Positions 132 to 31,823 of a stretch of 34,585 nucleotides of DNA are shown here, in pieces (position 1 is the stretch's first letter; each line of letters starts with the position of its first letter). A model generated the notes under the pieces. That model was not told where the DNA came from. It was given only the letters and a program-made list of their open reading frames with translations, and made no database searches. A program made the position numbers and the translations under genes. Origin of the DNA: a virus; the IMG/VR virus record IMGVR_UViG_3300045988_064981, positions 1-34,585 of that record, one strand, 5' to 3'.

Positions 132-320
132 ATGTATAAGGACGACGTGAATACTAAACGAATGTCGATCTCGCTCCCTCCGGAGCTGGAACGCGCCGTT
201 ACTGATCTGCGGAAAACCGATCGTTTTTGCAGATGCTCCTACGCGGAGATTATCCGGCAGTTGATGCAGGCCGGGATTGATGCAGTATCTACGGGACAGC
301 AGACCCAGACAGGCAGGTAA
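132..320 (+). CDS. Ribbon-helix-helix (CopG/Arc-type) DNA-binding protein, Cro-like position
   Basis: SD AGGAGA at 119..124, 7 nt before the ATG at 132 (alternative ATG at 126). KRMSISLPPELERAVTDLRK...SYAEIIRQLMQAGID fits a strand-helix-helix pattern. It is the first gene of the rightward operon. Confidence 0.75.
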   Translation: MYKDDVNTKRMSISLPPELERAVTDLRKTDRFCRCSYAEIIRQLMQAGIDAVSTGQQTQTGR

Positions 321-23648: not shown

Positions 23649-24060
23649 GGTAAGATCGGACATCCTCCGGCAGGCGCAGGAGATCCGCAAGGCGACACAG
23701 ACCCTCGCGGCCTACGCGCCGGACGAAGTGGCACTGGCGGCTCCTGCGGTGCTGTTTGACACATGGAGCGCGAGCGGGGTGGCCTATGCCAAGGGCGACA
23801 TCCGGCAGTACAACGGCCTGCTGTACCGCTGCGCACAGCCGCACACATCACAGTCTGACCGGACACCGTCCGCTGCTGAGTCCCTCTGGACTCGGATCGC
23901 AGACCCGACGCAGGAGTGGCCGGAGTGGATTCAGCCGACCGGGGCGCACGACGCATATGCCAAGGGCGCAAAGGTCAGCTATAACGGCAAGCACTGGGTT
24001 AGCACGGCTGACGCTAATGTGTGGGCGCCTGGAACATATGGTTGGGAGGAGGCGACCTGA
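23641..24060 (+). CDS. Protein with two carbohydrate-binding CBM5/12-like repeats
   Basis: AYAKGDIRQYNGLLYRCAQPHTSQSDRTPSAAESLW and AYAKGAKVSYNGKHWVSTADANVWAPG fit the Y-x-G-D/x-V-x-YNG...W pattern. Confidence 0.6.
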   Translation: MSKVRSDILRQAQEIRKATQTLAAYAPDEVALAAPAVLFDTWSASGVAYAKGDIRQYNGLLYRCAQPHTSQSDRTPSAAESLWTRIADPTQEWPEWIQPTGAHDAYAKGAKVSYNGKHWVSTADANVWAPGTYGWEEAT

Positions 24061-25310
24061 TGCACATCCGAGTCAAGATCACCCGCGACAGGAGCGGCAG
24101 GGTTGTGACGATGGAGATGGAGGACTATCTCAAGGGCGTGGTGCCGTCTGAAATCAAGGCGGAGACCTGTCCGATGGAGGCGCAAAAGGCACAGGCTATT
24201 GCCGCACGAACGTATGCCATCCGCAAGACCATCGACCGCCGCAGCAAGCCCTACGACGTGGACGATACCGCCGGATATCAGGCGTATGGAGCGCGACCGC
24301 GTCACAAAAACAGCGACGCGGCAGTGGAAGCAACGCGCGGACTGGTGCTGATGTACGGCGGCAAGCTCATTGACGCGGTCTACACCGACAGCAACGGCGG
24401 TCGCTGCGTGTCCTCCTTGGAGCGCTGGGGCAGTGCTGTCCCCTACCTGATCGACCAGCTCGACCCCTATGACAACTCCGGCAAGGTGCGCGGGCATGGT
24501 GTAGGACTGAGCCAGACCGGAGCTGCCACAAGGGGAAAAGCGGGGCAGACATGCGCGGAAATCCTCGGATTTTATTATCCGAGGGCGGTGATAAAAAAGC
24601 TGAAGGAGGCCGACAAGATGAATCTCGATGCAAAGCTGTCCGAGAATTTTACGCTGCGGGAATTTTATGACCCGGCGAACTATGTGGACGTGCTCAAGGG
24701 CAAGGCCGCACCCATCGTGCAGCCCAGCGACATTGACCACCGCATCATCGCCCTGCTGGAAAAGCTGCGGGCGAAGTACCGCCAGAAATGGCCGGGCGTG
24801 GTGATACGCATCCGACCGCATGGCGGCTACCGTCCCGATCCGCTGAACAAGCTGGTGGGCGGCGCACCCGGAAGCCAGCACCGCAAGGGCAACGCGGCGG
24901 ATTATAGCGTCGTGGTGCTTGGCAAGGCAATCGACGCGCCGACGCTGGCAGTCTGGACGGAGCATTACATGCAGGAGCTGGGCATCAAGGGCGGCATTGG
25001 GATGTACAAGGCCACCGACAATTACATCCATGTGGACGCGCGCGGAAAAAATGTCGCCTGGTACGACAGTTATTCTTCGGCCGGCTGCCCCGGACAGGGT
25101 GGTCGGCCTTGCACGTACCGCAAGGGCAGCAAGGGTGCGGGCGTGGTGCTGATCCAGCGGTATCTGGGCATCCCGGCAGATGGCAAATACGGCCCCAAAA
25201 CGATGGAGGCCGTGAAGGAATGGCAGGCGGAACACGGATGCACGCCGGACGGCATCTTTGGGCGCGAGACCAACCGCAAGATGGGCTATGTGCTGCCCTG
25301 GGAGGTGTAA
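24060..25310 (+). CDS. Three-domain endolysin: SpoIID/LytB-like, Peptidase_M15 (DUF882-type) and PG_binding_1
   Basis: YLKGVVPSEI...EAQKAQAIAARTYA (SpoIID-like). FTLREF...SQHRKGNAADY...IHVDAR (M15 zinc ligand pattern). GAGVVLIQRYLGIPADGKYGPKTMEAVKEWQAEHGCTPDGIFGRET (PG-binding). Confidence 0.8.
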   Translation: MHIRVKITRDRSGRVVTMEMEDYLKGVVPSEIKAETCPMEAQKAQAIAARTYAIRKTIDRRSKPYDVDDTAGYQAYGARPRHKNSDAAVEATRGLVLMYGGKLIDAVYTDSNGGRCVSSLERWGSAVPYLIDQLDPYDNSGKVRGHGVGLSQTGAATRGKAGQTCAEILGFYYPRAVIKKLKEADKMNLDAKLSENFTLREFYDPANYVDVLKGKAAPIVQPSDIDHRIIALLEKLRAKYRQKWPGVVIRIRPHGGYRPDPLNKLVGGAPGSQHRKGNAADYSVVVLGKAIDAPTLAVWTEHYMQELGIKGGIGMYKATDNYIHVDARGKNVAWYDSYSSAGCPGQGGRPCTYRKGSKGAGVVLIQRYLGIPADGKYGPKTMEAVKEWQAEHGCTPDGIFGRETNRKMGYVLPWEV

Positions 25311-25875: not shown

Positions 25876-26163
25876 ATGAATCTCGATTGGACGATGATCA
25901 CGGGTATTGCCGCTGCGGTGGCGTGTGTGGGTATGGCGCTGGTGGTTATCCTCTGGCTGTGCGGCAAAATCAGCTCCGACCGCGTGACGCAGGTCTGGCG
26001 CTGGGTGTGCTGGCTGGTGCAGGCGGCTGAGCAACTATTTGGAGCCAAAACAGGCGAACAGAAGCATGACTATGTTGTGGACATGCTCAAGCAGCTGGGG
26101 ATCAAGGTCACGGACGAGATCGACGCGCTGATTGAGGCGGCTGTGCGCGAGTTGACGGACTAA
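25876..26163 (+). CDS. Holin, LL-H family-like
   Basis: SD GGAGGAA. N-terminal TM ITGIAAAVACVGMALVVILWL and C-terminus EQKHDYVVDMLKQLGIKVTDEIDALIEAAVRE, typical of LL-H-type holins. Confidence 0.65.
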   Translation: MNLDWTMITGIAAAVACVGMALVVILWLCGKISSDRVTQVWRWVCWLVQAAEQLFGAKTGEQKHDYVVDMLKQLGIKVTDEIDALIEAAVRELTD

Positions 26164-26181: not shown

Positions 26182-26403
26182 ATGCTTGCAGAGATCACGC
26201 GCGCCGGACTGAGCCGTGCACAGGTGGGAGCGCTGATTGACGAGTGGGTGTTTTCGGCGCGGGACAGACAGATCCTGCGCCTGAAGCTGCTGGACGGGCA
26301 GACCTATGAGCAAATTGCAGAGGCGGTGCGTCCGCAGATGTCGCCGCGGCAGATCAAGCGGATTGTGACCTGCCGGGTGGATGATTTGCTCAAGCGAGTA
26401 TGA
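26182..26403 (+). CDS. Stand-alone sigma-70 region-4 / LuxR-like HTH protein (73 aa)
   Basis: SARDRQILRLKLLDGQTYEQIAEAVRPQMSPRQIKRIV has a region-4-like pattern. It is the last gene before a strong terminator. Confidence 0.55.
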   Translation: MLAEITRAGLSRAQVGALIDEWVFSARDRQILRLKLLDGQTYEQIAEAVRPQMSPRQIKRIVTCRVDDLLKRV

Positions 26404-26405
26404 TG

Positions 26406-26439
26406 TTGGGGTGGGCTTCGGCCTGCCCCAATTTTTTTT
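26406..26439 (+). terminator. Rho-independent terminator ending the late/lysis operon
   Basis: ttggggtgggc-ttcg-gcctgccccaa stem followed by tttttttt. Confidence 0.8.
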
Positions 26440-26451
26440 GATTTTTGGGGC

Positions 26452-26547
26452 GAAAATCTTTGGAAAGGTGTTGACAATATACGATTAATCATATATAATA
26501 ATAGATGTAAGGGGGAGATGGAAATCCCCGGAACAAACGAGGAGGAC
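26452..26547 (+). repeat. Promoter/operator/leader cassette, copy 1 (~90% identical to 27962..28057)
   Basis: gaaaatctt..ggtgTTGACAatatacgattaatcataTATAATaata..gggggagatggaaatcccc..acgaggagga. Confidence 0.9.
26471..26499 (+). promoter_or_regulatory. Consensus sigma-A-type promoter with embedded palindrome (accessory operon 1)
   Basis: TTGACA (26471..26476), 17 nt, TATAAT (26494..26499). The spacer holds atatacgattaatcatatat, a 19/20 palindrome. Confidence 0.75.
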
Positions 26548-26554
26548 ATGGAAA

Positions 26555-26899
26555 ATGAAAAAGGAACTTGCAAACGAGATTAAGGCTGTGGCACACGAGA
26601 TGGGTCTTGACGCTTGGGACCGCGAATACGAGTACGTTGGCATCCGCGTGCAGGAGCAGGAGTTTGAGCTGGGTGAGATCACTCACAAGTCTCACAACTG
26701 GGGCTACAACGACAATTATGAGACCGTGGACTTTGGTGAGGAGCTTGACGGCATCTGCTGCACCCGCCTGGAGGAGGCCGAAAAAAGCGAATACTTTGGT
26801 GAACATATCGCCGTCATCTGCGGCAACCACGCTACGTTTGGCGAGGACGACGGTGAGATCATCATCGAGGATCCCGTGGTTGTCAAGATCATCAGATAA
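26555..26899 (+). CDS. Highly acidic protein (114 aa), unknown family
   Basis: SD GAGGAGGA, 7 nt before the ATG. 28 D/E versus 10 K/R. It is the first gene after cassette copy 1. Confidence 0.75.
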   Translation: MKKELANEIKAVAHEMGLDAWDREYEYVGIRVQEQEFELGEITHKSHNWGYNDNYETVDFGEELDGICCTRLEEAEKSEYFGEHIAVICGNHATFGEDDGEIIIEDPVVVKIIR

Positions 26900-26913
26900 T
26901 TGGAGCAGCATCA

Positions 26914-27552
26914 ATGCCTGACGTAAAAGCAAATCTCAAATGCAGGGAGTGTGGGATCCCCATCCCACACCCCACTGCGTATCAAACGCTCTGCGACGAG
27001 TGCGCAAAGCGCCTGAAAAGTGCAATGGCGCTCCGGCCGCGTGTATGCGTCGAGTGCGGGGTTACATTTGACGGTTATCCCAAATCTAAGCGCTGTCCGG
27101 CTTGCCGGCATGAGCGCGTGCTGCGGCTTCGGGCGGGGTATCGGGCTGCGGAAAAGGCGGGCAAACAGCGCAAAATTGGCGAGACATATCTGTGCGAGAG
27201 ATGCGGCAAGCCGTATACGCTGACCGGCGGATTGCAGCGATATTGCCCGGATTGCAAGGACGATGCGGTGCTGGAGGCCAATCGCGCTGCGTCCCGCGAG
27301 TATATGCGGGCGCACCGGGGCGAGCAGAAGCGATCTAAACACGCCGTCAGATATTGCGTGGTCTGCGGGAGGGATATCTCCGCGAACACCAGCACTATCA
27401 CGTGCAGCCCGGAGTGCGCGCTGGAGCGGAGACGGCAGCGGCAGCGCGCTGCGGATGCTCGGCGCGGAGTCGGGCGCGGCTCACAGGATTACACCCCAAC
27501 AAAAGCACGCGGGGTCCCGCGTACCCTGAAGTCGGCAAAAAAGGAGGAATAA
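26914..27552 (+). CDS. Multi-zinc-ribbon protein (4 CxxC...CxxC units), paralogue of 28729..29901
   Basis: CRECG..CDEC, CVECG..CPAC, CERCG..CPDC and CVVCG..CSPEC, with a basic C-terminus. It is collinear with the N-terminal half of the longer paralogue. Confidence 0.8.
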   Translation: MPDVKANLKCRECGIPIPHPTAYQTLCDECAKRLKSAMALRPRVCVECGVTFDGYPKSKRCPACRHERVLRLRAGYRAAEKAGKQRKIGETYLCERCGKPYTLTGGLQRYCPDCKDDAVLEANRAASREYMRAHRGEQKRSKHAVRYCVVCGRDISANTSTITCSPECALERRRQRQRAADARRGVGRGSQDYTPTKARGVPRTLKSAKKEE

Positions 27553-27553
27553 T

Positions 27554-27763
27554 ATGGCAGTATCAGACGCCCAGAGAGCGGCGTCCGCGCGCTGGGAAAA
27601 AAAGAACCGCAAGGCCGTAGCCTGCACGCTTCCTCGAGAGGAGGCAGAAGCGTTTTACGCCGCGGTAAAAGAGGACGGCACAAGCGTCAACGATGTGCTC
27701 AAACGATGGATCCGTGACTATATGGCGTGCAGGGCTGACAAAAATGAGTCTTGCAAAACGTGA
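27554..27763 (+). CDS. RHH-like small DNA-binding protein (69 aa)
   Basis: SD AAGGAGGA. KAVACTLPREEAEAFYAAVKEDGTSVNDVLKRWIRDYM fits strand-helix-helix. It is homologous to an internal segment of the 28729..29901 product. Confidence 0.65.
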   Translation: MAVSDAQRAASARWEKKNRKAVACTLPREEAEAFYAAVKEDGTSVNDVLKRWIRDYMACRADKNESCKT

Positions 27764-27927
27764 GTGGCTGTGCTATCTTATAGTTGCATACCGTGTCAGG
27801 CACGCCTCCTCGCGCGCCTGTGGATTGAAATGCGAATAGCAATGCAGACGATGCTTTTTCCAACCTTGCTCTTGCGGGGCGATGCGATGCTCGTGGTATG
27901 CGGAGCGCATCTCAGCATCCGACGCAG

Positions 27928-27961
27928 AGAGAGTCCCGCAAGGGACTCTCTTCTTTTTTTT
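27928..27961 (+). terminator. Rho-independent terminator ending accessory operon 1
   Basis: agagagtccc-gcaa-gggactctct followed by tcttttttttt. Confidence 0.85.
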
Positions 27962-28057
27962 GAAAATCTTCAAAAAGGTGTTGACAATATACGATTAATC
28001 GTATATAATAATAAGTGTCAAGGGGAGATGGAAATCCCCAAGAACAACGAGGAGGAT
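27962..28057 (+). repeat. Promoter/operator/leader cassette, copy 2
   Basis: gaaaatctt..ggtgTTGACAatatacgattaatcgtaTATAATaata..aggggagatggaaatcccc..acgaggagga. Confidence 0.9.
27981..28009 (+). promoter_or_regulatory. Consensus promoter with perfect 20-bp palindrome ATATACGATTAATCGTATAT (accessory operon 2)
   Basis: TTGACA (27981..27986), 17 nt, TATAAT (28004..28009). The palindrome at 27987..28006 overlaps the -10. Confidence 0.75.
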
Positions 28058-28064
28058 GATTGAG

Positions 28065-28736
28065 ATGTACGTATACGATCGTGGACTGTATGTATTTAAT
28101 CGTGACGAGATGAGATTTATGGACGGCAAGACCGTCCTCATAATCAACACCATGCGCCGCGCCCCCGACGAAAGTCGCCCGTGCCACAACACCGACGAGA
28201 TCATCGGCAAGGTGATTGACGTCGATGCCCTCCCGTACGACATTGCACATGATGCGTATGTCGTGCCGGACGTCGAGGCCATCAAGGCGGCGGTTGCCGA
28301 AAAATATCCTGTTGATTGCGCTGAGCTGGATGACGGCTCCGTGGGATGGACGAACATAGACGAGGAGCCGTGCTGCGAGTATACATACGGGGTGTGCATC
28401 CCGAGTATGTATAACATCCCTGATGAGTTGGACGATGATGAGCAGCTTGAGTGGTGGGCAGATCATCACTGGGAGCGCGACGAGGGCGAGCCGGAGTGGT
28501 ATGATACGCTCAAGGAGGCTCTCGCGGCAGCTGACAAAGCGTTTTCTGCCGGACAGCCCATCCCCTGGATCTACATCCAAAAATTTAACGTCAAGACCGG
28601 CGATCCGGAGTACGAGCTGGATGAGATCGAGCTGGATGCGGATGAGGACGGCAATTGGGACATGGGGTCGGACGATCCGCTGGCGTGGAAAGAGTACAAT
28701 CTGGCTTGTGACGAGGATGAGGTAGACAATGCCTGA
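28065..28736 (+). CDS. Highly acidic protein (223 aa), unknown family
   Basis: ATG at 28065, 9 nt after GGAGG (the ATG at 28056 abuts the SD). The C-terminal third is nearly poly-D/E (DELDDDEQLEWW..DPEYELDEIELDADEDG..CDEDEVDNA). Confidence 0.75.
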   Translation: MYVYDRGLYVFNRDEMRFMDGKTVLIINTMRRAPDESRPCHNTDEIIGKVIDVDALPYDIAHDAYVVPDVEAIKAAVAEKYPVDCAELDDGSVGWTNIDEEPCCEYTYGVCIPSMYNIPDELDDDEQLEWWADHHWERDEGEPEWYDTLKEALAAADKAFSAGQPIPWIYIQKFNVKTGDPEYELDEIELDADEDGNWDMGSDDPLAWKEYNLACDEDEVDNA

Positions 28737-29901
28737 GATCAGAGCCAACGTTATTTGCCGAGAGTGCGGGACACCAATCCCGCACCCTACTCGGTATCAA
28801 AAACTTTGCGACGAGTGCCAGCAAAAAGCAATCCACAAGGGCAAAAAAGTTGAACGCATTTGCACCGAGTGCGGTCGGAAATTTATCGGCGGGCCCAGTG
28901 CCAAGAGATGCCCGGACTGCAAGCGTGAGCGCGACCTAGAGAGAGCGCGGCTGCACCAGCAAGCCAAGGCTGCGGGGCACGCGCGGGAGCTTGGAAGGAC
29001 GTATATCTGTGAGGCGTGCGGAAAACCTTACGTCCTCAATAGTGGGATGCAAAAATATTGCCCGGACTGCATGGAGGAGCAACGCAAAAAAGATACCCGT
29101 GAAAAAGTGAATGACTACATGCGTGCCAATAAAGGCAAGTATCCCAAATACCCGCGTATGAGAGTATGCGTGATCTGCGGTAAGATACTCGAGCCGGGGA
29201 CGCGCGAGATTACATGCAGCCCGGAATGTGCGGAAAAAAGAGCGTTGCAACAATACGACGCGTCAATGGGTAATCCTGATCCGGACTATCACCCGACAAA
29301 GGGCGCCGGGCATCCGCAAAAATCCAGACGCCAGATGACTGAGCTCTCGACGTCAGGAGCGACCGATCAGTTAGTGCAACCCCACAAAGCAGTCTGTTGC
29401 AAATTGCCCGTAGATGAGGCTAGGTCGTTTGCGAATGCGGCTCTTGTTAATGGGATGTCCGCATCACAACTCTTGCAGCAGCTGGTCCGCGACTACATGG
29501 CAAACAAAGACATAGCGGCGTTGGCGGCCGCGGCTGAAAAATTACCGAAGCACGCGCGCCGAGATGTAAAAAAAACTTGTCAAAAGTGCGGTATCGAATT
29601 TATGGGAGATCGCATTGCAAAATACTGCCCCGCATGCAAGATAGCGGTCCAGCGCCAGCAGACGTTAGACTACTCAAGACGCATGCGCCCAAAGACCAGC
29701 CGCCATGTAGGCGAGGTCTATCCGTGCAAGCGCTGTGGTAATGATTATGTACTAGAGACTCCTGGTCAGCAGTATTGCCGTAAGTGTGCCAAGATTGCAT
29801 ATAGAGAGTATGCAGCCAATGCATATCAAAATAAGCGAGCCCGCGAAGCGCAAAAAAAAGAAGCAACGCCGGAGGAAGAGTCACAAAATACAGATCAGTG
29901 A
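28729..29901 (+). CDS. Multi-zinc-ribbon protein with internal RHH-like segment (6 CxxC...CxxC units)
   Basis: 390 aa. The N-terminal ~200 aa are collinear with 26914..27552. The middle segment KAVCCKLPVDEARSFANAALVNGMSASQLLQQLVRDYM matches the 27554..27763 product. Two further zinc ribbons follow at the C-terminus. Confidence 0.8.
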   Translation: MPEIRANVICRECGTPIPHPTRYQKLCDECQQKAIHKGKKVERICTECGRKFIGGPSAKRCPDCKRERDLERARLHQQAKAAGHARELGRTYICEACGKPYVLNSGMQKYCPDCMEEQRKKDTREKVNDYMRANKGKYPKYPRMRVCVICGKILEPGTREITCSPECAEKRALQQYDASMGNPDPDYHPTKGAGHPQKSRRQMTELSTSGATDQLVQPHKAVCCKLPVDEARSFANAALVNGMSASQLLQQLVRDYMANKDIAALAAAAEKLPKHARRDVKKTCQKCGIEFMGDRIAKYCPACKIAVQRQQTLDYSRRMRPKTSRHVGEVYPCKRCGNDYVLETPGQQYCRKCAKIAYREYAANAYQNKRAREAQKKEATPEEESQNTDQ

Positions 29902-29903
29902 TA

Positions 29904-29930
29904 AGCCGCCCCACATGGGGCGGCTTTTTT
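29904..29930 (+). terminator. Rho-independent terminator ending accessory operon 2
   Basis: gccgcccc-acat-ggggcggc followed by tttttt. Confidence 0.85.
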
Positions 29931-29961
29931 GTCCCTAAAATGTCCCCATTTTGACACCGAA

Positions 29962-30002
29962 GTGTCCCCTGCATGACATCGTGCAGGGGGCGCTTTTTTT
30001 TT
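29962..30002 (+). terminator. Second tandem terminator
   Basis: gtgtcccctgca-tgacatcg-tgcagggggcgc (12-bp stem with two G-U pairs) followed by ttttttttt. Confidence 0.7.
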
Positions 30003-30029
30003 ACAATTTTATCAGGAGGTGGAGAAAAG

Positions 30030-30437
30030 ATGAATGGATATGGCAATCCTTACGGCTACCCCTATAGCCCCGGATATCAGCAGCAGATGTACGGGCAGCA
30101 AATGCCGCAGCGGTATGAGCTGGTCAAAGTCAGCGGACGCGGCGGCGTGGACGCGCTCCGGGTTGCGCCGCGAAGCGAGCTGCTTGCAATGGACACGTCC
30201 CGCGCCGACGTGCTGCTCGCGTGGTACATCCAGGCGGATGACGCAGGTTATAAGTCGGTGACGCCCTACGTGCTGACACCTTACACCGATCCCGCGCCGA
30301 TTGATGCAACGAACATCGAGCAGAGGCTCAAGAGATTGGAGGAGATCATTGATGGCAAATCCGTTGCTGGCAAGCCTACAAAAGCAGACCGCGCCGCAGC
30401 AGCCCGCCAACCCGTTGCAGATGCTGGCGGAGTTTAG
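30030..30437 (+). CDS. Hypothetical protein with Tyr/Gly/Gln/Pro-rich N-terminus
   Basis: SD AGGAGGTGGAG, ATG at 30030. NGYGNPYGYPYSPGYQQQMYGQQMPQRYELVKVSGRGGVDALRV... Confidence 0.65.
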   Translation: MNGYGNPYGYPYSPGYQQQMYGQQMPQRYELVKVSGRGGVDALRVAPRSELLAMDTSRADVLLAWYIQADDAGYKSVTPYVLTPYTDPAPIDATNIEQRLKRLEEIIDGKSVAGKPTKADRAAAARQPVADAGGV

Positions 30438-30621
30438 GCGCTTTGCGTCCGGCATCATCCCGTTGCAGATGCTGGCGGAGTTTAGGCGCTTTGCGTCCGG
30501 CATCACCCCGCAGCAGGCGCAGACAAAAGTCGAAGAGCTGCTGCAATCCGGGCAAATGTCGCAGGAGCAGTTTGAGAGCCTAAAAAAACCGGCGCAGGAT
30601 TTTATGGAGTTTCTTAAATAG
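30352..30621 (+). CDS. Gln-rich small protein carrying an internal 16-aa perfect duplication
   Basis: SD GGAGGAG, ATG at 30352. PLQMLAEFRRFASGI occurs twice. It overlaps the previous ORF by 86 nt. Confidence 0.55.
   Translation: MANPLLASLQKQTAPQQPANPLQMLAEFRRFASGIIPLQMLAEFRRFASGITPQQAQTKVEELLQSGQMSQEQFESLKKPAQDFMEFLK
30411..30506 (+). repeat. Perfect 48-bp tandem duplication (2 units, differing only at the last base)
   Basis: cccgttgcagatgctggcggagtttaggcgctttgcgtccggcatca[t/c] at 30411..30458 and 30459..30506. In frame (16 codons). Confidence 0.95.
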
Positions 30622-30674
30622 CCGGTGCGCAACGGCTATTTGTGAATAAATCTATCAAAAAAGGAGTGTGCGTA

Positions 30675-31334
30675 ATGGACAATAATTACAGTCTCTCTGA
30701 TCTGCGTGCGGCGGTCGGCGACGAAGACAAGGGCTTCGGCGGCGGCATGGGCGCATGGTGGATCATCATCCTCTTTTTGTTTGTCTTTATGGGCGGCGGC
30801 TTTGGCGGCTGGAATCGTCAGCAGGTGCAGCCGGGCGAGTTTGGCCAGTATGCGACCGCTGCCAGCCAGCAGCAGATCCTGTTTGGGCAGCAGTTTGGCG
30901 AGATCAACGACCGCCTGACGGCGCTGGGCAACGGCGTGGCGTCGCTGGGCTACGATATGCAGGGCAGCCTCGGTCAGCTTGGCAAGGACATCGCCCTCGG
31001 CCAGGCGGGCACCAACACCACGATCATGCAGACCGGCAACGCCTTGCAGCAGCAGATCGCGTCCTACTGCTGTGAAAACAGGCTGGCAACCGCCAACCTC
31101 TCGGCGCAGATCGACCGTCAGACCTGCGACATTACCACCGCGATCCACGCAGAGGGCGAAGCGACGCGCAACCTGATCCAGACCAGTGAGATTCAGCGGC
31201 TCCGCGACAAGGTCGCTGGGCTTGAGATGGACAGCCGGATGTGCGGCGTAGTCCGCTATCCCATGTCCTACTCCTACAACGCCGGACCCTCCCCGTTTTG
31301 CGGGGGCGGTTGCAATTGCGGCGTGAATATGTAA
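30675..31334 (+). CDS. Membrane protein, Gly/Gln-rich with Cys motifs (unknown family)
   Basis: SD AAAGGAG, ATG at 30675. TM segment GAWWIIILFLFVFMGGGFGGW. Motifs YCCENR and QTCDI, and C-terminus FCGGGCNCGVNM. Confidence 0.7.
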   Translation: MDNNYSLSDLRAAVGDEDKGFGGGMGAWWIIILFLFVFMGGGFGGWNRQQVQPGEFGQYATAASQQQILFGQQFGEINDRLTALGNGVASLGYDMQGSLGQLGKDIALGQAGTNTTIMQTGNALQQQIASYCCENRLATANLSAQIDRQTCDITTAIHAEGEATRNLIQTSEIQRLRDKVAGLEMDSRMCGVVRYPMSYSYNAGPSPFCGGGCNCGVNM

Positions 31335-31370
31335 CCAACTGAGCAATGGCCCATTAGGCCGACAACATGA

Positions 31371-31399
31371 GCGGCAGGGTGTAAACCCTGCCGCTTTTT
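31371..31399 (+). terminator. Rho-independent terminator
   Basis: gcggcaggg-tgtaaa-ccctgccgc followed by ttttt. Confidence 0.75.
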
Positions 31400-31418
31400 G
31401 AAGAAAGGAGTTTGTAAT

Positions 31419-31823
31419 ATGGCACGCAATCTGATCTATACGGTAAACACCACGGGCGCCGCCGCGCCGATCGGCAGCACCGTCCCTGTGGGCAGCATCA
31501 TCCGGCGGTACGGCAAGTGCATCAGCGCCGAGGGCGAGAGTATCGTGCTGCTTGAGCCGGGAGATTATCTTGTGACGATGACTGCGACCGCGACGGCAGC
31601 GACCGTCGGAAACGTGGCGCTTGGCATCCAGCAGGACGGCGTCGCCGTGCCGGGAGCGACCGCAACGGAGACCGTTGCGACAGCAGGCACCGAATACGTC
31701 AATCTGTCGTTCGCCCCCATCGTGCGCGTGAGATGCTGCGGCAATGCGCGTCTCACCGTTGTGGTTGCCGGCACGACTGAGCCGACGATCACCAACCTTG
31801 CGATTGGAGTGGTCCGCGTATGA
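31419..31823 (+). CDS. BclA C-terminal-domain-like (TNF/C1q-like jelly-roll) protein without collagen repeats
   Basis: SD AAAGGAG. The pattern PGDYLVTMTATATAATVGNVALGIQQDGVAVPGATATETV...VNLSFAPIVRV...ARLTVVVAG...NLAIGVVRV resembles exosporium BclA-CTD-type domains by eye. Confidence 0.5.
   Translation: MARNLIYTVNTTGAAAPIGSTVPVGSIIRRYGKCISAEGESIVLLEPGDYLVTMTATATAATVGNVALGIQQDGVAVPGATATETVATAGTEYVNLSFAPIVRVRCCGNARLTVVVAGTTEPTITNLAIGVVRV

Follow-up and report, generated by a model that had tools for sequence, protein, structure and literature searches.

What are two small, self-contained gene cassettes doing between the lysis genes and the integrase gene of a gut phage, and why does each of them open with a gene for a strongly acidic protein? 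The cassettes lie at positions 26,555 to 29,930 of the IMG/VR record IMGVR_UViG_3300045988_064981, the whole of which (34,585 nucleotides) is called the window below. Each acidic protein (acid1, acid2) is followed by a multi-zinc-ribbon protein (ZnR1, ZnR2) and a ribbon–helix–helix (RHH) module, an arrangement that the first-pass annotation had likened to anti-CRISPR (acr) operons autorepressed by anti-CRISPR-associated (Aca) proteins. The explanation that we favor is that the cassettes are two autonomous accessory-gene units (“morons”) of acr–aca build whose cargo would inhibit host proteins; as a whole, and judged from sequence analysis, we give it a probability of about 0.5. Its parts differ in strength: the acr–aca-like regulatory design is very probable, while an anti-defense role of the acidic cargo is plausible at somewhat below even odds.

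Briefly, the proposed mechanism would run as follows. When the phage DNA enters the cell, host RNA polymerase would fire the promoters P1 and P2, which by sequence are perfect host sigma-A-type promoters, without any phage factor, and thus produce a burst of acid1 and acid2. The co-transcribed RHH1 protein and the RHH module inside ZnR2 would then dimerize on a shared palindrome, occlude the −10 element and shut both operons, as Aca proteins do. The basic multi-zinc-ribbon protein may be a conserved companion to the DNA-binding domain of the cassette, whatever its type, either as a co-repressor or as a second nucleic-acid-binding module. Finally, the acidic cargo proteins would be inhibitors of host proteins, most likely those of anti-phage defense. 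The features involved are listed below (nt, nucleotides; aa, amino acids; pI, isoelectric point; UTR, untranslated region).

26405–26432, plus strand: terminator-like hairpin with T-run, which ends the lysis/sigma-r4-like operon and insulates cassette 1
26471–26499, plus strand: promoter P1 (TTGACA-17-TATAAT), 12/12 match to the consensus
26477–26496: operator O1, a 20-bp palindrome (ATATACGATTAATCaTATAT) with one G>A mismatch, filling the spacer and overlapping the −10
26512–26529, plus strand: GC stem-loop of the 5′ UTR (GGGGA...UCCCC), about 10 nt 5′ of the Shine–Dalgarno
26555–26899, plus strand: acid1, cargo of cassette 1, 114 aa, pI 4.40, 28 D/E and 10 K/R, member of the A1 family
26914–27552, plus strand: ZnR1, basic (pI 9.7), 16 Cys forming four CxxC...CxxC zinc ribbons
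27554–27763, plus strand: RHH1, 69-aa ribbon–helix–helix protein, predicted operator-binding repressor, last gene of cassette 1
27927–27952, plus strand: terminator-like hairpin closing cassette 1 and insulating cassette 2
27981–28009, plus strand: promoter P2, 12/12 match to TTGACA-17-TATAAT
27987–28006: operator O2, a perfect 20-bp palindrome (ATATACGATTAATCGTATAT) covering the spacer and the start of the −10
28022–28039, plus strand: 5′ UTR stem-loop, paralogue of the cassette 1 stem-loop
28065–28736, plus strand: acid2, cargo of cassette 2, 223 aa, pI 4.05, 58 D/E and 16 K/R
28729–29901, plus strand: ZnR2, 390 aa, four zinc ribbons, then the RHH module, then two further ribbons
29383–29502, plus strand: RHH module inside ZnR2 (aa 219–258)
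29903–29926, plus strand: terminator-like hairpin closing cassette 2
29959–29996: second terminator-like hairpin after cassette 2

The control regions of the two cassettes resemble each other: P1 and P2 each lie in one copy of a direct repeat (95 nt, 86% identity), and the palindrome ATATACGATTAATCRTATAT occurs at only two sites in the window (O1 and O2), with 0 expected in 100 shuffles. The strong promoter carrying an inverted repeat announced by the first-pass annotation is thus found twice, as a 12/12 promoter with a 20-bp palindrome over its −10. The mismatch in O1 is a G>A at window position 26491, in the right half-site, while the closest relatives (L005–L008) have a perfect palindrome at this promoter; therefore, repression of P1 might be weaker in this phage. 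The genes themselves are tightly coupled, ZnR1 and RHH1 being separated by 1 nt and acid2 overlapping the start of ZnR2 by 8 nt. As expected of morons, the cassettes have their own promoter and terminator, are placed between conserved genes and are polymorphic among relatives; as in acr–aca operons, a DNA-binding regulator is encoded downstream in the operon, an inverted repeat lies over the promoter, and the cargo varies while the regulator is conserved. A GC stem-loop just 5′ of the Shine–Dalgarno recurs in several cassette groups, and a relative (L009) has the compensatory version GGGGC...GCCCC, even though the significance of the stem-loop is weak (z about −2) and the association of the hairpin with ZnR (19/26 vs. 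7/16 operons) is weak as well and confounded by relatedness.

On the regulator side, a Cys-rich zinc-ribbon protein and an RHH module do follow each acidic gene, as separate proteins in cassette 1 and as a single protein with an internal RHH in cassette 2; ZnR1 and ZnR2 are paralogues, 45% identical over 203 aa. The RHH profile matches AvtR (2e-5), ParG, Arc, CopG and Mnt. For ZnR, the PDB returned generic zinc-ribbon matches only (E 0.002 or worse), and the family libraries returned generic zinc-ribbon models only, apart from a match to phrog_1271, annotated as “HNH endonuclease” (E 1e-15). We rejected this label, also found in some phage records: the invariant columns of a 28-sequence ZnR alignment are restricted to Cys, Gly, Phe, Arg, Tyr and Gln, i.e., there is no conserved His/Asn. 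The label “TnpX” on ZnR relatives is unsupported in the same way. In different phages, ZnR is fused to, or adjacent to, an RHH, an HTH_3, a helix–turn–helix (HTH)-like or an AP2-type-looking domain (the latter recognized by eye), and the DNA-binding partner differs from group to group: RHH, HTH_3 with a Cys-rich N-terminus, HTH-like domain, or divergent NikA/TacA-like RHH. Because of this recurrent fusion to DNA-binding domains, ZnR appears to be tied functionally to sequence-specific DNA binding.

Which of the two proteins would read the operator? The cassette groups have a common promoter design, each with its own palindrome overlapping the −10, and at least 11 different palindromes were observed, all within the spacers of near-perfect promoters, among which:

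TACGATTAATCGTA: this window
TACGCTCTAGCGTA: L009
TACGCTAATATTAGCGTA: HTH_3 group
CCACGCATTGCGTGG: L018, L031
ATTACACACGTGTGTAAT: L016
TACACATTTAAATGTGTA: Enterocloster
TATAGCATGCTATA: locus L098 of [Clostridium] asparagiforme and viral contig L135
ATTCGTACGAAT: Blautia phage Montmirail

In L009, the RHH is 65% identical to that of the window and the ZnR 91% identical to ZnR1, and both cassette promoters carry TACGCTCTAGCGTA instead of TACGATTAATCGTA. Since the palindrome is altered alongside the RHH while the ZnR is kept, the operator seems to follow the RHH, not the ZnR, a conclusion based on one evolutionary event seen at two promoters. Moreover, the presence of a single inverted repeat on both the own and the neighboring operon is not peculiar to O1 and O2, with three copies in L006 and two in L009.

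The first-pass annotation had proposed using the zinc-ribbon/RHH protein as bait to see whether the upstream genes are variable. Searching with the ZnR alignment yielded 409 viral loci with a relative, of which 80 were fetched and analyzed; genes were called with a simple caller guided by ribosome-binding sites, and their products clustered (the calls include a few spurious small open reading frames, ORFs). Upstream of ZnR within the operon, we found the A1 family, acid2, an 89–92 aa protein (pI 4.1–4.7), a pair of 86 and 72 aa (pI 4.1), a 106–108 aa protein (pI 4.2), a hexapeptide-repeat protein and two basic families. These genes are swapped at exact borders, with promoter, operator and regulators kept. 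In pairwise blastn, the window is about 97.6% identical to its relative L005 up to position 28056, and the similarity comes back at 28729, the first base of ZnR2; in place of acid2, L005 has an unrelated 92-aa acidic gene. Likewise, L032 and L027 share their promoter (88%) and their HTH and ZnR genes (95%), with A1 as cargo in one and the acidic pair of 86 and 72 aa in the other, while L009 keeps ZnR and RHH (86% at the nucleotide level) and has two other genes in the place of A1. There is also a natural deletion variant, the metagenomic protein P0083, in which an intergenic ORF is fused to the last 26 residues of acid2 (window about 27972–28656), so that P2 and most of acid2 are gone and ZnR2 is kept. 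By these comparisons, the cargo is dispensable. Altogether, the swaps, the palindromes over the −10 and a remote similarity of the RHH to a known Aca protein (see below) bear out the acr–aca-like architecture.

A second search started from A1 as the bait and retrieved 64 viral loci and 11 genomic ones; A1 was called in 45 of the viral loci. A promoter matching the consensus at 10/12 or better lies within 160 nt upstream in 38/45 of these, and ZnR is found downstream in 17/45, the other 28 being devoid of it. When the surveys were pooled, 97 operons behind consensus promoters bearing palindromes were obtained, encoding 55 protein families, about 14 of which occur in first position. Of the 58 occurrences of A1, 57 are in first position, preceded by 18 operator variants; ZnR sits at position 1–3 and is never first, and acidic families occupy about 89/97 first positions. 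Hence, the variable first gene of the first-pass annotation holds for the cassettes in general, with one correction: acid1 itself is no hypervariable one-off but belongs to a conserved, widespread family that recurs behind many regulators. A neighboring 235-aa gene within group III loci, considered as a phosphoadenosine phosphosulfate (PAPS) reductase, was dropped for want of a Pfam match.

Two arrangements seen in these surveys deserve a separate mention. The close relative L006 (5491–8394) has three copies of the window-type promoter and operator, the first unit having as cargo an acidic protein of 108 aa in which a ParB-like “DKHHT” motif occurs, and the later ones encoding A1 together with a hexapeptide-repeat protein of 269 aa (left-handed beta-helix), ZnR and RHH, then acid2. 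On the [Clostridium] asparagiforme chromosome (L098, 3200–4300) and in L094 and L096, A1 opens one arm of a bidirectional operon pair, with the same palindrome in both promoters and three copies in the intergenic region; the opposite arm begins with a NikA/TacA-like RHH and also encodes an 82-aa acidic protein as well as a zinc-ribbon protein whose C-terminal segment is AP2-like by eye.

The acidic proteins themselves were then compared with known families. Their coordinates and counts of D/E and K/R had been reported exactly in the first-pass annotation, and by net negative charge per residue, acid2 ranks first and acid1 third among the 53 called genes. In contrast, the description of the C-terminal third of acid2 as almost poly-acidic is slightly overstated: two acidic stretches are indeed present (residues 112–148, with 14 D/E and 1 K/R, and the last 38 residues, with 16 D/E and 1 K/R), but the stretch between them is not acidic (5 D/E vs. 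4 K/R). That the two proteins are not related to each other was confirmed, with an hhalign probability of 0.07%. The A1 family, i.e., acid1 and its relatives, comprises 53 clusters of 104–134 aa with 21 invariant positions. No match to acid1 was found in Pfam, NCBIfam or PADLOC, nor among PDB sequences at E up to 10, and its C-terminal part has a weak match (7.5e-05) to an uncharacterized PHROG. Its AlphaFold model is globular and confident (mean predicted local distance difference test, pLDDT, of 89.6) and consists of one helix followed by a beta-rich domain, for which the PDB offers no counterpart (best E 0.79, template modeling score <0.3) and BFVD only uncharacterized viral proteins. Neither a signal peptide nor a transmembrane segment is visible by eye in acid1. 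As for acid2, a word-index search returned two relatives, and HMMER against 1.84 billion representatives returned its own cluster, the deletion artefact and one marginal protein of 1085 aa (E 7.5e-04); by these searches, acid2 is an orphan confined to close relatives. In Pfam at E up to 1, it has a non-significant SERTA match (E 0.2) and nothing else, and there is no match among PDB sequences; its AF2 model (pLDDT 48.5) is unusable. The homology to structural or metabolic families that would have spoken against the anti-defense idea did not turn up for either protein in Pfam, PHROGs or NCBIfam.

Several known systems help to place the cassettes. The closest is Aca14, a validated RHH anti-CRISPR-associated regulator. 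Its binding site is an inverted repeat of 20 bp that overlaps the −10, it represses both its own operon and the neighboring one, and the authors of its description ask whether zinc-finger proteins might play similar regulatory roles (bioRxiv 10.64898/2026.07.27.740549, PMC13551039; Aca14 sequence taken from its Table S2). The RHH profile of our locus matches Aca14 with an hhalign probability of 94% (E 1.4e-7, 25% identity over 44 columns), while BLASTP gave no alignment between the two, which suggests that they share fold, superfamily and mode of action, and that the resemblance is remote. As in Aca14 operons, the order runs from variable cargo to a small RHH at the end, the −10 is overlapped by an AT-rich inverted repeat of 20 bp, and two neighboring operons share that repeat. 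Unlike them, the cassettes are without a known Acr among their cargo and have a multi-zinc-ribbon gene added or fused. The hosts also differ: Clostridia (plus Paenibacillus) for the cassettes, Pasteurella and other Proteobacteria for Aca14.

The acrIIA loci of Listeria prophages (Rauch 2017, Osuna 2020), again in temperate phages of Firmicutes, are reportedly located 3′ of the lysis genes at the prophage end, with small acidic inhibitor genes that vary between phages and a promoter that AcrIIA1 is said to autorepress via a palindrome. The cassettes resemble them in their position after the lysis genes, their variable small acidic genes and their palindromic promoter, but the Listeria regulator belongs to the HTH proteins and is an Acr in its own right, a zinc-ribbon gene is absent, and no sequence similarity of the cassette genes to Listeria acrIIA genes was detected (Pfam, PDB sequence). 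In the immI region of P22 (arc–ant–mnt), RHH repressors act on operators overlapping a strong promoter, which results in a short burst of a small effector. There, however, the regulator comes first and the effector is an antirepressor matched to its own repressor, whereas the cassette cargo is interchangeable and dispensable. Morons, as Hendrix and co-workers are said to have defined them, are autonomous promoter–gene–terminator units between conserved phage genes; the cassettes are likewise autonomous and polymorphic among relatives, yet they bring their own predicted repressor and operator, and two or three copies of their control region are found per genome. Finally, acid1 and acid2 recall the DNA mimics Ocr and ArdA by their strong net negative charge and small size, without homology to them in Pfam or among PDB sequences or, for acid1, among PDB folds. 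What would be new relative to Aca-type autorepressed cassettes is the added multi-zinc-ribbon partner and the occurrence in Clostridia phages, and our literature searches found no description of a zinc-ribbon Aca-type regulator or of a zinc-ribbon partner in acr-type operons.

Four observations weigh against reading the cassettes as anti-defense morons. No cargo protein is a homologue of a known Acr or anti-defense protein (Pfam, PHROGs and PDB sequences; folds for acid1); more broadly, none matches defense-system, structural or metabolic families, and apart from regulators (HTH_3, sigma-70 region 4) and a single hexapeptide-repeat protein, nothing was recognized in a scan of 36 other cassette families. 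The early/immunity promoter of the phage also has a palindrome in the spacer of a 12/12 promoter, and therefore this design marks repressor control in general, not anti-defense specifically. Some first-position genes are basic, not acidic. Lastly, A1 and ZnR are found together from Clostridia phages to Paenibacillus larvae phages, so that a direct functional partnership is possible instead of a cargo and its regulator.

At face value, the cassettes occupy the classic moron locus, the prophage end that runs from the lysis genes to attP/integrase, and this position, together with their own promoter and terminator and their presence/absence polymorphism, would also suit genes for lysogenic conversion or superinfection exclusion, expressed at a low, autorepressed level from the prophage, whose acidic products benefit the lysogen or block other phages. 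Moreover, the cassettes would escape silencing by the prophage repressor, their operator being different from the immunity operator. We nevertheless consider this account unlikely: no cargo protein matches defense-system models, acid1 has, by eye, neither the transmembrane segment nor the signal peptide typical of exclusion proteins, small acidic proteins without enzymatic domains are a better fit to inhibitors, and a cargo-first, regulator-last order with autorepression is a burst-limiting design. An RHH repressor whose operator overlaps a strong promoter is also the Arc/Mnt design, which raises the question of a phage-internal switch in the manner of P22 immI, the acidic protein being an antirepressor or a modulator of the lysis–lysogeny decision under tight RHH control. 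In some genomes, A1 does have as its neighbor an RHH or HTH gene read in the opposite direction, three copies of the operator separating the two, and the cluster of phage Halcyone adjoins the lysogeny module. Yet near-identical phages swap their cargo for unrelated proteins, which is unexpected for a component matched to a repressor, acid2 is naturally deletable, there is no homology to Ant, KilAC or BRO, and the cassette operator bears no relation to the immunity operator (GTACACC-N4-GGTGTAC), all of which make such a switch quite improbable.

The remaining accounts start from the zinc-ribbon protein. As the most widely conserved component (409 viral loci), with a match to an “HNH endonuclease” family and a partnership with A1 across distant phages, it could itself be the effector, acting for instance as a transcription factor directed at the host or as a DNA binder associated with a nuclease, with the acidic proteins as its modulators or chaperones. 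However, an HNH site is not supported by its alignment, the same ZnR occurs with unrelated cargo, A1 is without ZnR in 28/45 viral operons, and the recurrent fusion to sequence-specific DNA-binding domains points to a regulatory role; we regard this account as highly improbable. With an acidic first and a basic second gene, an RHH and a palindromic operator, the cassettes are superficially reminiscent of a type II toxin–antitoxin or addiction module (cf. omega–epsilon–zeta), in which the acidic protein would be the antitoxin, the basic zinc-ribbon protein the toxin and the RHH the regulator. We rejected this reading, to which we attach hardly any credence, because there is no obligate, co-inherited cognate pair: besides the frequent absence of ZnR behind A1, ZnR is associated with at least seven unrelated upstream families. 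In addition, no toxin-domain homology was found, and ZnR is fused to DNA-binding domains.

If the cassettes are indeed anti-defense morons, a broader reading comes within sight, which we hold to be doubtful: multi-zinc-ribbon proteins with interchangeable RHH, HTH or AP2-like domains would form an unrecognized class of Aca-type regulators marking more than 400 anti-defense islands. As companions to it, and at the same doubtful level for the three together, ZnR might act on the operator DNA and on the 5′ UTR hairpin, and acid1 (a new fold), acid2 and about a dozen mostly acidic first-position families might be new anti-defense proteins. Were it true, the islands would be carried by phages of gut Clostridia and related Firmicutes and would target the systems of little-studied hosts. 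To our knowledge, few anti-defense proteins are known for gut Clostridia phages, and bait-based discovery has so far mostly proceeded via HTH Aca proteins of Proteobacteria. The zinc-ribbon protein, together with the palindrome-bearing consensus promoter, is a usable bait, leading to hundreds of viral loci whose first-position genes are exchanged in the manner of acr genes. Candidates for direct testing are acid2, the A1 family and the remaining small acidic families found in first position, and the question of the Aca14 authors about zinc-finger regulators becomes testable. Should the cargo not be anti-defense, the locus would still represent a widespread, modular and, by prediction, self-repressed cassette of temperate Firmicutes phages.

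Regarding the genome as a whole, the ends of the window are identical over 116 bases (1–116 = 34470–34585), from which it follows that the genome is complete, either circular or circularly permuted, and about 34,469 bp long. The portal protein and the large terminase exceed their Pfam cut-offs, as do the genes flanking the cassettes, so that the location between lysis genes and integrase stated by the first-pass annotation stands. Features outside the cassettes are as follows.

24021–25310, upstream of the cassettes: SpoIID/M15/PG-binding endolysin, passing the Pfam cut-off
25876–26163, upstream of the cassettes: holin, passing the Pfam cut-off
32319–33488, minus strand, downstream of the cassettes: tyrosine integrase, passing the Pfam cut-off
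34522–34551, plus strand: early/immunity promoter, 12/12 consensus, with a palindrome (AGTACACCGATGGTGTACT) in the spacer
34458–34430, minus strand: divergent switch promoter, 11/12 consensus

Near-identical contigs of 34–41 kb are present in human gut metagenomes, and relatives of the cassette genes occur in genomes of Clostridia (Enterocloster, [Clostridium] asparagiforme, Lachnospiraceae), plus one Raoultibacter, as well as in cultured phages (Blautia Montmirail, Flavonifractor Cormatin, Paenibacillus larvae Halcyone, Heath and Scottie). At the nucleotide level, blastn of the cassette region against 50,697 phage records returned zero matches.

By its appearance, the region spanning 34430–34585 and 1–320 is the lysis–lysogeny switch, with divergent promoters and several copies of the immunity operator, one of them within the spacer of the plus-strand promoter. 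The small proteins beside it (34019–34408, minus strand; 132–320, plus strand) are RHH-like by eye, while Pfam gave no confirmation (E ≤0.001). Directly 5′ of cassette 1, the lysis operon ends with a 73-aa protein (26182–26403) that consists of little beyond a sigma-70 region-4-like HTH (Sigma70_r4_2, E 5e-4, under the cut-off) and is retained in close relatives. On the other side, 29973–32134 is a conserved block that adjoins the cassettes in all relatives, in either orientation, and whose members are a Gly/Tyr/Pro/Gln-rich protein of 135–154 aa, a BclA_C-like protein of 134–141 aa, a 104-aa protein and a 219–230 aa protein with an N-terminal hydrophobic stretch and a Cys-rich C-terminus (by eye). 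A bidirectional terminator separates the last plus-strand gene from the 3′ end of the integrase gene and is flanked on both sides by 31-nt direct repeats (32142–32172 and 32318–32348, 90% identical), which may be attP or arm-type sites of the integrase. Finally, the ORF at 30301–30621 contains an in-register tandem duplication of 48 nt (30408–30503, 98% identical), which doubles 16 residues (PLQMLAEFRRFASGI).

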